In this document: one piece after another, positions 44,261 through 52,698 of the stretch
How the letters are laid out: each line of letters starts with the position of its first letter
How positions within the stretch are numbered: position 1 is the first letter of the stretch
From: Anolis carolinensis
Lineage: Eukaryota
DNA: 64,000 bases
Reading direction: 5' to 3'
Assembly: GCF_035594765.1 (NCBI RefSeq)
Contig: NC_085841.1
Coordinates: 83,065,574-83,129,573 of the forward strand
Position numbers and translations under genes: made by a program
Notes under the pieces: generated by a model
Told to the model about the DNA's origin: nothing
Databases searched by the model: none
What the model saw: only the letters and a program-made list of their open reading frames with translations

Positions 44261-46275
44261 TGATGGCCGTCACCCCAGCTTTCAAATTGATTTGAAAACG
44301 CAGCAGAGAGTTCCATAGATTACTCTCCAAAAGAACGGAGCGGGACCGCAACAGACTATTATTAAAAGACCTTTTTTCCTTCATTTTCCTCTTCCCTGAA
44401 CTATGTAACAAATCCCCCCAATAAAAGTAGCATTTATTTTAACAATAACACTCTCTATCTGGTTATTTTGTATCTTTCCCTGACTCCTTCCTTCGCATGC
44501 AATCGCTCTCTCTCCCTCCCGTCCTTTTAACTCCGGCTGAGATTCCCTGCCATAGATTAACATGGCGGTCGATATAAATTGGCTCATATCTCTATCAAAA
44601 TTACCCCTAGAACGCTCCTCTTTTAGTCTTAACCCTTTCTAAGGCTCCTGACTCGAAGACAACCAGCAGACCCGGAATCGGTCCAGTTTTCGGCATCTCA
44701 ACAGCTGACTGTCAAACAGAACCGCGTTTCTTTCCAAGCCAAGTTGCTGCTTTATCCCGGGGTTTTCTCTCCCCGCGACTCGCGGAATGGTTCTCCCTGG
44801 CCCCTTTCTGTGAAATGGGGATGGGGGGATCGCTCTCTCGCTGGGGAGACATAGTTCACCAAGGACCCTCACCCTCTACAGCTGCCAGGGGATGCCCGGA
44901 CGGGGGGCCCTCCACGTTTCATTCATAATTTCATAATTTTATGAAGGAGAAGAACACTCTTCCTCAGACCTACCCCTGGGACTTATGAAATCCTATACTT
45001 CCAAGGACTACAACATACATGTGTCCCTTCCCCATGCCATCTCTATGAATTCCTTATGAACTCTTTCCCCTCATGTATTTGTGAATTTTCATATTCTATG
45101 TACATGACTCACTGTTGTATGAATTTCAAATCGTTGGGCTAACTTCATGAATTGTGAAATCATGCTGCTTGAACCCCACTTCTATGTTGGATTCCCCAGA
45201 TGTTGTGTACTTCGTTCTTATCAAATGTTTTCAAATGTCTATATCATTCATGATTCCCCTTTATGCAATGTCACCCACCTTTATGGATTCTTCTTTATTT
45301 TCTTGAAAGCTGCCTATCTGCCTATATGTATTTATACTCTTTGGGATCCCCGGAAAATATGTGTTTTTCCCAGCTGGGTTTATATTCCAACTTTATTTTT
45401 AATTTCCATTTTATCCCATATAATTGGCAGATCATGAAATCAAATGGGAAATATTATGACCCCAACCTGAACTCTAGCCCCATGACTCAAACCTCCCTTC
45501 CCAAAAACAAAAGGATAATCTGCCACAGTTTAATCCAATCTCATTCCGATCGCATGGACAATATAGGGTTTAGAGTCACCAAATTCCTAAAGGTGACTCA
45601 CCCCCAAGGCAAACATCGTCATATTCCAGGCCAGGACGCCGCTGGAAGGCACCCTGTGGGGCCGTCAATGATGGCTCATCAACACCCATCACCCCTTCCT
45701 GTCTGACACCCCAAAGACATATCTAAAATCTGCGAACGTGACAGGACCCCGGACATCCTTGATGGGTGTCATTAATTCCTTTAGAAATTGGCTGGGCCAG
45801 AATTAATCCGATGTTTCCTGTCCGGTCACCGCATTGTTTCTATAGCTCCCGCCTCCTCCTCTCTGATTGGCCCAAGGGGGGACGGAAAACGGCTCCCCAT
45901 TGGGCCAGCAGGGCAAGGCGGGAAACGAAAGCCCGCCTCGTTCAACCTCTCAGCCTATCCGCGATCAGATGGGCAGGGAAGCGGGGCGGGAAATTCAAAG
46001 GGCTGTCAGACCGAAACATTGTATAAATATGACTTTATTTGAAACATATGTTACGCTAGTGGATTGAATGATCACTATTAGCGTCCTTTTCAGCTGAATT
46101 GCTCAATAAAACTCCTTGGCGGATTTTCCTTCAACGTGGCGGACCTTCTTCATTTCAGGCTTCAGGTTGTATTGCGGCTTATATTCTTCTTTTGGCTTCG
46201 CCAAGGTCCGTTCCCTCAGGACCGGATCGGCTTCCTTCTAAAGGGGCCCGATCCCCCCAAACGCGGTCGACAACA
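44261..46275 (+). repeat. 5' LTR, 2015 bp
   Basis: TGATGG...CAACA; TATAAA 46022-46027; AATAAA 46105-46110; inverted CCAAT boxes and a GC box at about 45785-45990. Confidence 0.96.
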
Positions 46276-46280
46276 TAATT

Positions 46281-46300
46281 TGGCTTTACCACGAAGGGAC
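46281..46300 (+). other. Primer-binding site, tRNA-Arg(TCG)-type, imperfect
   Basis: TGGCTTTACCACGAAGGGAC, 5 nt after the LTR end, versus the Arg-TCG complement TGGCGACCACGAAGGGAC. Confidence 0.8.
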
Positions 46301-49410: not shown

Positions 49411-49803
49411 GGCCCGCCGCCCGCGAACTGTCCTGACCCACACCCTCCCGAGGCCCGGAGAAAGACCAAAAGCCAGAGACCAAAGCACAAGACCCTCTCC
49501 AAGGACCTCTCCAAATTCCATCCTTCTAGCTCCACGGGAACACCCCCATTTGGACCTACAAACATTTGACAGCTCGCTTTGACAGCTGTCAAATCGGCCC
49601 TCACTTCAACCCCCGCTCGGAAGAACTGAATACCTTAGTTTCCCGGCTGGGAGCTGTCCGGCGTGCTGAATCAGGAGCCGTGAGTTCTAATTTTCACTCT
49701 ATTTTTTTTCTCCTTGGGAGCTGTCCGGGGTACTAACCCTAACCCTAATTCTCATTTCCTCTCTAACCCTCCCTGTCAATTCTAGCCCGGTGTTGTCCAT
49801 TAG

Positions 49804-50718
49804 CTTCCCATTGACAACTCTCTAAATTACACACATAGAGAAAAACTGTCTCATTTGAATGCCCATTTGGTCCTGCCCCCAGGATGGTTTTTCCTGTGTG
49901 GACAGACAGCCTATGGTTATCTACCTGCCAATACCTCCATGGGGAATTGTGCATTGGGTAGGCTGTCTCTTTTTATGCCCTCCAAGAACGACTTAGAGTT
50001 GGCACACTCTTTGGGTCGGAAGGCAAGATCCATTCAGAACTTGGACCCGAATTGTGACCCCTCAGTAGTGCTAAAAGGTATCCCACAATTTGTGGCGGCT
50101 GCATTATTCACTCCTGGAGTGGCCTCAGCCATGAATTATAGGGCCATAAAGCACCTGGCCTGCGCTCTGGTCAAAAACATCAATTATACCTCTCAAGCCT
50201 TGGCATCAGTGGCAAAGGAAAGGCATGAGCTGCAGGAGGCTGTATTAGATAACAGGGCAGCTATTGATTTCCTCCTATTGAAAAACCACTATGGCTGTGA
50301 GAGTGTAAGGCACATGTGCTGCTTTAATTTGACAGACCAGACTCCTATGATTCATAAATCCATTGAGGGTTTGAATGATTTGGCCTCAGGAATTAAGGAG
50401 ACGACTGGATTCGACCTTAGTTTTCTGACCGATTGGCTCCCCTCTTTAGACTGGTTGAGGAAAGGTTTTCTCCTCTTTCTAGCCGTAATCCTTTTCCTTC
50501 TAATAATAAGCTGTTGCTGGTCGCATTTGCCCGCTCTGTTCCAAATTTGTCGCAAAAAGAACCATTCGAATCCCTCTCAGCAGATGGCCATGCTGCCGCT
50601 AAGAGGTTATAATGCTTATGCGGTAGGGCAGGGGCGAAGTGGGCTCCTCCCATCTTCGCCCCGCCCTTACCGAGTGGGGAATATGATGGCCGTCACCCCA
50701 GCTTTCAAATTGATTTGA
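49804..50718 (+). CDS. env: Retroviral envelope: SU C-terminus plus complete TM, alpharetrovirus(ASLV)-type; no obvious initiator or signal peptide (first ATG 49939)
   Basis: Frame open from the TAG at 49801-49803 to the TGA at 50716-50718. Motifs: LPPGWFFLCGQTAY..CALGRL, cleavage site RKAR (50017-50028), Cys-flanked internal fusion peptide, ISD LDNRAAIDFLLL, CX6CC (CESVRHMCC), membrane anchor GFLLFLAVILFLLII. Confidence 0.9.
   Translation, partial: LPIDNSLNYTHREKLSHLNAHLVLPPGWFFLCGQTAYGYLPANTSMGNCALGRLSLFMPSKNDLELAHSLGRKARSIQNLDPNCDPSVVLKGIPQFVAAALFTPGVASAMNYRAIKHLACALVKNINYTSQALASVAKERHELQEAVLDNRAAIDFLLLKNHYGCESVRHMCCFNLTDQTPMIHKSIEGLNDLASGIKETTGFDLSFLTDWLPSLDWLRKGFLLFLAVILFLLIISCCWSHLPALFQICRKKNHSNPSQQMAMLPLRGYNAYAVGQGRSGLLPSSPRPYRVGNMMAVTPAFKLI
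50672..50683 (+). other. Polypurine tract
   Basis: GAGTGGGGAATA immediately before the 3' LTR TG. Confidence 0.8.
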
Positions 50719-52698
50719 AAACGCAGCAGAGAGTTCCATAGATTACTCTCCAAAAGAACGGAGCGGGACCGCAACAGACTATTATTAAAAGACCTTTTTT
50801 CCTTCATTTTCCTCTTCCCTGAACTATGTAACAAATCCCCCCAATAAAAGTAGCATTTATTTTAACAATAACACTCTCTATCTGGTTATTTTGTATCTTT
50901 CCCTGACTCCTTCCTTCGCATGCAATCGCTCTCTCTCCCTCCCGTCCTTTTAACTCCGGCTGAGATTCCCTGCCATAGATTAACATGGCGGTCGATATAA
51001 ATTGGCTCATATCTCTATCAAAATTACCCCTAGAACGCTCCTCTTTTAGTCTTAACCCTTTCTAAGGCTCCTGACTCGAAGACAACCAGCAGACCCGGAA
51101 TCGGTCCAGTTTTCGGCATCTCAACAGCTGACTGTCAAACAGAACCGCGTTTCTTTCCAAGCCAAGTTGCTGCTTTATCCCGGGGTTTTCTCTCCCCGCG
51201 ACTCGCGGAATGGTTCTCCCTGGCCCCTTTCTGTGAAATGGGGATGGGGGGATCGCTCTCTCGCTGGGGAGACATAGTTCACCAAGGACCCTCACCCTCT
51301 ACAGCTGCCAGGGGATGCCCGGACGGGGGGCCCTCCACGTTTCATTCATAATTTCATAATTTTATGAAGGAGAAGAACACTCTTCCTCAGACCTACCCCT
51401 GGGACTTATGAAATCCTATACTTCCAAGGACTACAACATACATGTGTCCCTTCCCCATGCCATCTCTATGAATTCCTTATGAACTCTTTCCCCTCATGTA
51501 TTTGTGAATTTTCATATTCTATGTACATGACTCACTGTTGTATGAATTTCAAATCGTTGGGCTAACTTCATGAATTGTGAAATCATGCTGCTTGAACCCC
51601 ACTTCTATGTTGGATTCCCCAGATGTTGTGTACTTCGTTCTTATCAAATGTTTTCAAATGTCTATATCATTCATGATTCCCCTTTATGCAATGTCACCCA
51701 CCTTTATGGATTCTTCTTTATTTTCTTGAAAGCTGCCTATCTGCCTATATGTATTTATACTCTTTGGGATCCCCGGAAAATATGTGTTTTTCCCAGCTGG
51801 GTTTATATTCCAACTTTATTTTTAATTTCCATTTTATCCCATATAATTGGCAGATCATGAAATCAAATGGGAAATATTATGACCCCAACCTGAACTCTAG
51901 CCCCATGACTCAAACCTCCCTTCCCAAAAACAAAAGGATAATCTGCCACAGTTTAATCCAATCTCATTCCGATCGCATGGACAATATAGGGTTTAGAGTC
52001 ACCAAATTCCTAAAGGTGACTCACCCCCAAGGCAAACATCGTCATATTCCAGGCCAGGACGCCGCTGGAAGGCACCCTGTGGGGCCGTCAATGATGGCTC
52101 ATCAACACCCATCACCCCTTCCTGTCTGACACCCCAAAGACATATCTAAAATCTGCGAACGTGACAGGACCCCGGACATCCTTGATGGGTGTCATTAATT
52201 CCTTTAGAAATTGGCTGGGCCAGAATTAATCCGATGTTTCCTGTCCGGTCACCGCATTGTTTCTATAGCTCCCGCCTCCTCCTCTCTGATTGGCCCAAGG
52301 GGGGACGGAAAACGGCTCCCCATTGGGCCAGCAGGGCAAGGCGGGAAACGAAAGCCCGCCTCGTTCAACCTCTCAGCCTATCCGCGATCAGATGGGCAGG
52401 GAAGCGGGGCGGGAAATTCAAAGGGCTGTCAGACCGAAACATTGTATAAATATGACTTTATTTGAAACATATGTTACGCTAGTGGATTGAATGATCACTA
52501 TTAGCGTCCTTTTCAGCTGAATTGCTCAATAAAACTCCTTGGCGGATTTTCCTTCAACGTGGCGGACCTTCTTCATTTCAGGCTTCAGGTTGTATTGCGG
52601 CTTATATTCTTCTTTTGGCTTCGCCAAGGTCCGTTCCCTCAGGACCGGATCGGCTTCCTTCTAAAGGGGCCCGATCCCCCCAAACGCGGTCGACAACA
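50684..52698 (+). repeat. 3' LTR, 2015 bp
   Basis: Appears identical to the 5' LTR; every fully internal ORF in the track recurs with identical translation at +6423. Confidence 0.96.

Follow-up and report, generated by a model that had tools for sequence, protein, structure and literature searches.

The provirus and its open env frame

We analysed a window of 64,000 nucleotides (nt) from the genome of the lizard Anolis carolinensis (contig NC_085841.1, positions 83,065,574 to 83,129,573), in which positions 44261 to 52698 are occupied by an endogenous retrovirus (ERV) lying on the forward strand, as do all the features given below. Its two long terminal repeats (LTRs; 44261-46275 and 50684-52698), each of 2015 bp and of the form TG...CA, match at 2015 of 2015 bases and enclose an interior of 4408 bp, and the target-site duplication (TSD) AAAG stands on both sides (44257-44260 and 52699-52702). 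The 5' LTR is 94% identical to an LTR of one copy of a full-length family, hereafter the helper, which is described below; judging by a TATA-like site at 46022 and an AATAAA at 46105, U3 would measure about 1.8 kb, with boundaries deduced from these signals. The LTR is followed by a primer-binding site (PBS) for tRNA-Arg(TCG) (46281-46300), with an internal mismatch of three bases versus one after four paired bases, and by a leader common to the helper (46301-46909), which probably contains the packaging signal and a splice donor near 46858. A frameshifted relic of 5' gag comes next (46910-47610), covering matrix (MA) and the start of the proline-rich region, and then a central segment of 1.6 kb (47611-49237), which takes the place of capsid (CA), nucleocapsid (NC), protease (PR), reverse transcriptase (RT), RNase H and the integrase (IN) core. 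Downstream of it we found a relic of the IN C-terminus and pol tail (49238-49569; 85% amino acid identity to helper Pol 1136-1249), a pol-env spacer with a 5' remnant of env that lacks a start codon (49570-49796), a deletion junction at 49796/49797 where 316 nt of helper env, encoding the N-terminal surface subunit (SU), are gone, and an open env frame of 304 codons from stop to stop (49804-50718), the 3' end of which falls inside the 3' LTR. The remnant of the signal peptide (49739-49795) is out of frame with this open stretch. A short purine-rich tract just upstream of the 3' LTR (50672-50683) is probably the polypurine tract. DNA identity to helpers is 85-89% over 46276-47610, 79-88% over 49238-49796, and 92-98% over 49797-50679.

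A tblastn search with helper Gag and Pol found no CA, NC, PR, RT, RNase H or IN core in the element, and a Pfam search of ten other interior open reading frames (ORFs) found no domain. A preliminary description, made from the sequence alone, is thus borne out in its account of identical LTRs, an AAAG duplication, and frameshifted MA and IN-tail relics with nothing recognisable between them. The central segment has some splice-like signals, i.e. TACTAAC followed by a pyrimidine tract and CAG near 48517-48534, and donors at 48837 and 49010. Its 20-mers at 48687-48835 are unchanged in 61 of 61 copies that carry the same centre, hinting at a cis-acting RNA element. Contigs of four sequencing runs presumed to be RNA cover the interior; their joints are deletions already known from DNA copies, with no GT-AG joint among them, which leaves expression undecided. 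The 3' end of the provirus lies in a diverged member of a short interspersed repeat family (52690-52760), which recurs in the window at 40460, 54432, and 57497.

The env frame matches TLV_coat in Pfam (E 1.3e-9) and is 95.5% identical to helper Env. It contains the motif RKAR (50017-50028), a fusion loop (around 50053-50163) whose cysteines, residues 84 and 120, flank a hydrophobic stretch at 88-110, a sequence resembling the immunosuppressive domain (50245-50295), CX6CC (50296-50322), and an anchor (50464-50520). The preliminary description was right about the openness of the frame and about these motifs, but not in taking it for the transmembrane subunit (TM) alone, since about 75 residues of SU are included; the first methionine is codon 46. 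The closest solved structures are TM chains of avian sarcoma and leukosis virus (ASLV; 5h9c and 4jpr, E 8e-12). With a fusion loop bounded by cysteines, an SU without CXXC, a TM with CX6CC, and ASLV as the nearest solved TM, the envelope has the sequence marks of the alpha type. An in-frame stop lies directly 5' of the frame, and three out-of-frame ATGs precede the first in-frame methionine.

Satellite copies and their full-length relative

An exact motif count places the central segment in 116 copies genome-wide, hereafter satellites, and the env junction of the window in eight of them (window-type copies); in the DNA similarity search for copies, 36 of 699 candidates were scored. Satellites come in three forms: like the window copy, with 316 extra bases of env, or with most of env deleted. 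We read 79 of the 116, a sample biased towards env-bearing copies. Among the 35 read whole, the LTR pairs of five were not cleanly parsed and were excluded; the other 30 pairs all show 0-4 mismatches, and 28 of these 30 copies have their own 4-bp TSD. The LTR of the window differs from those of 29 other copies by 2-140 substitutions. Because the pairs are clean, carry their own TSDs, and that of the window is distinct from the others, its LTR identity is specific to the locus and does not reflect an assembly collapse. Tandem proviral arrays with a common LTR also occur, as do identical insertions on two small contigs (L049/L050, L047/L157, L048/L156, L125/L126, L147/L148, L084, L213), which represent either duplication or assembly redundancy.

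None of 61 satellites has a pol core. Around gag nt 93, 59 of 61 satellites and none of 57 helpers carry a +1 frameshift, and in the tree of the gag relic 60 satellites separate from 55 helpers with a single label change (SH-aLRT support 89). Since the frameshift is common to the satellites and absent in the helpers, and their gag relics form one group, the broken gag relic had one origin, before the copies spread.

Comparison of the central segment with helper gag-pol by blastn, tblastn, tblastx, and nhmmer gave nothing significant (best nhmmer E 0.54; a single 32-bp blastn match at E 0.002). It is homologous over about 940 nt (E 6e-11) to the interior of a second non-autonomous family (L065, L082, L085, L239-L248, L250-L252). 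PBS, leader, gag relic, and the 3' 1.1 kb of the LTR are common to both families; in the second one U3 starts differently and env is absent. Its interior holds an old RT relic, 42% identical to helper Pol, and some of its copies share parts of the window-type centre. No pol relic was detected in the central segment of the window itself, and no free-standing donor element for the satellite centre was found; 18 centre-bearing loci outside the earlier MA list, read in search of such a donor, were all env-deleted or broken satellites. From the numbers of PBS sites (264 plus 48) minus the 116 satellites and 63 helpers, the env-less sister family may comprise some 100 copies.

A search with the N-terminal part of Env, in which all 122 candidates were scored, and another with a tRNA-matched PBS led to the helper family, to which 60 of the 80 env-bearing loci fetched belong and for which a pol motif counts 63 copies. 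Helpers encode gag (with Gag_p30 and a zinc knuckle) and, separated from it by one stop but in the same frame, pol (PR, RT, RNase H, IN, and an IN tail of the murine leukaemia virus, MLV, type), as well as an Env of 431 amino acids with a signal peptide; all three genes are open in 29 of 60. Their LTR pairs differ at 0-4 sites in 17 of 20 cases, and at 10-25 in the other three, where the count is possibly inflated because the fetched stretch ends near the LTR end. By its Gag_p30, its MLV-type IN C-terminal domain, and the single stop between gag and an in-frame pol, the helper is class I-like (gamma-like). Since satellites and helpers are both young and have LTR, PBS, leader, and env in common, the helper family is likely the cognate mobiliser of the satellites. 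The preliminary description had expected a multi-copy lineage with gag-pol decay older than integration and a full-length helper with a related leader, and all of this was found, its doubt about an assembly collapse being removed. We also considered as helper a second, abundant intact gamma-like family (six loci read), and rejected it: its DNA similarity to the satellite is limited to chance-level matches of 31-38 bp. This other family (L067-L078; at least 150 Gag_p30 matches) is itself very young, with a PBS presumably of the tRNA-Trp type, an LTR of 485 bp, pol open at 1187 amino acids in five of six loci, and an env frame of 518-519 amino acids in five of six.

The PBS is complementary to tRNA-Arg(TCG), and the search for host genes of this tRNA yielded two. 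The mismatched version is present in 264 copies, helpers included, and its predicted duplex is weaker than the matched one (-35.5 versus -43.3 kcal/mol). Exact matches to the tRNA occur at 48 sites, 27 of the 30 checked being of the same LTR family, and one copy matches the second tRNA-Arg gene. On the leader tree the matched copies (13 of 115) do not cluster (11 changes; 55 of 500 shuffles as low). The same pattern is described for ETn, MusD, and IAP in the account of PMC7472051, where inheritance of about 50:50 is expected; the rarity of matched copies here would therefore mean either that they are disfavoured or that repair is biased.

Exchange of env and tests of its selection

These observations lead us to consider it very probable that the window element is one of a non-autonomous lineage of 116 members, the core of which was replaced by a 1.6-kb non-coding segment, and which is likely packaged and reverse-transcribed by the co-resident intact family. 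Its env frame is likely a non-translated fragment of helper env, renewed by recombination, and not a selected cargo. Two sets of results bear on this: the traffic of env between the two morphs, and its fate within satellites.

In the env tree (92 rows) the satellite and helper labels need 17 changes, at least nine of which are forced by well-supported branches, and a single satellite env clade is rejected (p-AU 2.8e-81). The eight window-type copies share one junction yet fall at two places on this tree, and labels are also mixed in the leader tree (11 changes). One identical internal env deletion occurs in satellites (L128, L180, L186, L046, L064) and in helpers (L147, L148), which is another sign of exchange.

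Within satellites, env has decayed stepwise, from a missing start codon and SU block to frameshifts and deletion of most of the gene, and damaged forms were copied onward; env protein in cis is therefore dispensable. Most of env is missing in 37 of 37 satellites examined outside the two env-bearing classes. In these env-deleted copies the tail of pol (window 49238-49710) and a final stretch of ~230 nt ahead of the LTR (50458-50683) persist, which suggests cis requirements.

The satellites with a fuller env, about 17 copies, might be a selected env-only class that provides Env in trans, with the window copy as a decayed offshoot. Their env, of 393-466 amino acids, has a signal peptide and an anchor, and their ratio of nonsynonymous to synonymous polymorphism (pN/pS) is 0.13. 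Yet env is intact in only 17 of the 34 satellites keeping its N-terminal part, four of the 17 being identical tandem copies, versus 54 of 60 helpers (p=3e-5), i.e. disrupted in 50% versus 10%. Identical lesions are seen in more than one copy, e.g. a 338-amino-acid truncation in five, their env is interleaved with that of helpers, and intact env is already available from the helpers. We thus regard such a class as improbable.

Slimmer still is the chance that the satellite carries a selected TM-type protein, be it for immunosuppression, interference with helper Env, or complementation. The frame is open with all TM motifs, it stays so through the anchor in six of the eight window-type copies, their raw pN/pS is 0.18, and the TAG just upstream could in principle serve as a splice acceptor. 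However, all eight are without the ATG and the 316 nt of SU, and what is left of the signal peptide lies in another frame. This env form occurs in only 8 of 116 copies, three of which are open to the end, three frame-shifted in the tail, and two without the anchor (probably one insertion represented twice); env is mostly deleted in the other class, and 13 of 14 PBS loci outside the satellite and helper lists belong to the env-less sister family. Nor do substitutions speak for selection. Helper env has a pN/pS of 0.06, and private codon states comprise 31 synonymous and 46 nonsynonymous changes in satellites versus 62 and 21 in helpers (Fisher p=1.3e-5). Once transition bias is allowed for, the satellite-private changes are indistinguishable from neutral (p 0.24 and 0.10), given an expected synonymous fraction of 0.312, a value obtained by interpolation from kappa 4 and kappa 8 to the measured kappa of 5.8. 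The preliminary description had held that selection kept the C-terminal half of env while gag decayed, had looked to substitution ratios across copies for this, and had named frequent disruption of env elsewhere as evidence to the contrary; such disruption is what we observed, and that part of its argument has to be given up. About equally doubtful is a variant in which the window-type sub-lineage acquired the open SU-end/TM frame more than once because a signal-less TM, made by internal initiation or cryptic splicing, helps the satellite, e.g. through damage to helper Env that would retain mixed particles within germ cells. Where a defective ERV has an open env, this can stem from recent recombination, and selection is not necessarily implied. 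Finally, spread by host duplication or gene conversion instead of reverse transcription in helper particles is highly improbable: a few copies are tandem or have common flanks (L047/L157, L048/L156, L049/L050), but the near-identical LTR pairs and above all the distinct TSDs largely refute it, and PBS variants fitting two host tRNA-Arg genes, scattered over the tree, are the expected mark of tRNA-primed reverse transcription.

The likely course of events falls into five steps. First, the gag relic was broken once, ahead of the spread of the copies. Second, a cognate family, itself young and with gag, pol, and env open, is present and has the same LTR, PBS, leader, and env. Third, under standard retroviral replication, satellite RNA would enter helper particles together with helper RNA, be primed by tRNA-Arg, reverse-transcribed by the RT of the helper, and inserted by its IN with a 4-bp TSD. 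Fourth, template switching in mixed particles would swap leader and env, as the conflict between trees suggests, and the non-homologous centre with the adjoining gag relic would stay specific to satellites; this refreshing may explain why an env 95.5% identical to that of the helper stands beside a long-decayed gag. Fifth, env was lost in steps, with damaged forms copied on and its protein dispensable in cis.

Several points weigh against this scenario. The frame is open through the anchor in most window-type copies, and 17 satellites have a complete env. The raw pN/pS of satellites is well below 1, which we attribute to variation imported from helpers, and the neutrality test of the window type uses 11 private changes only and has little power. 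Gene conversion between integrated copies could also produce interleaved trees. The retroviral origin of the centre is reached only indirectly, through the second family, and packaging in trans is a reconstruction.

Comparison with known systems

Cattle ERVK C/D, MusD/ETn, and KoRV/recKoRV have a common pattern according to PMC10924933: the centre is swapped for a piece of an old retroelement and the flanks are kept. The closest counterpart is the D-type of cattle ERVK[2-1-LTR], a defective morph which has the LTRs and the gag and env flanks of the competent C-type around a centre that aligns poorly; the two recombine in the flanks, and the D-type is the more numerous (PMC10924933). Differences are that the anole helper combines a class I-like character with an env of the alpha type, that there are two satellite lineages, and that some satellites hold a complete env ORF, as no D-type does in that account; helper dependence is measured in cattle and deduced in the anole (PMC10924933). 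The recKoRV1 element likewise has the LTR, leader, and 3' end of env of an active virus, KoRV, around the centre of an older degraded retroelement, but recKoRVs are given many origins in PMC6112702, unlike the satellite gag relic, which fits one. ETn resembles the satellite as a non-autonomous partner that shares LTR and primer tRNA with MusD, the commonest PBS of which mismatches the tRNA while perfect ones are scattered as apparent revertants; the primer is tRNA-Lys there and tRNA-Arg in the anole family (PMC7472051), and the MusD/ETn flanks are gag and pol, not env (PMC10924933). As for the envelope, alpharetrovirus-like forms on gamma-type pol are reported in reptiles and bats, with the same cysteine-flanked fusion peptide, SU without CXXC, ASLV TM as best PDB match, and class I-like gag-pol; the anole family differs from the cases set out in PMC13568524 in being young and multi-copy and not a co-opted single locus, and the likeness is one of marks, not of a tree.

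The anole element shows four features of this group: shared flanks, a non-aligning centre, intact ORFs only in the competent morph, and recombination between morphs in the flanks. By these sequence features it fits the non-autonomous ERV morphs with a swapped centre, of the D-type, recKoRV, and ETn kind, and with the failure of the TM-cargo claim it is not a new sort of satellite. Refrex-1, FeLIX, SFFV gp55, and VL30 are further cases of defective ERVs in which env is partly retained or helper particles serve as carriers; as usually described, the truncated env products of these systems keep a start codon and signal peptide, unlike the window frame, which has neither. In the literature searched, neither this family nor any helper/satellite pair from a lizard turned up; Repbase, Dfam, and paywalled papers lay outside that search, and a library name may exist. 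The helper/defective pairs that we found in print are mammalian (cattle, koala, and mouse). In the anole, two defective lineages that draw on the LTR and primer site of an ERV exceed it in copy number; this reptile ERV was active recently, has an env of the alpha type, and includes about 30 copies with all three genes open. [quoted passage not shown]

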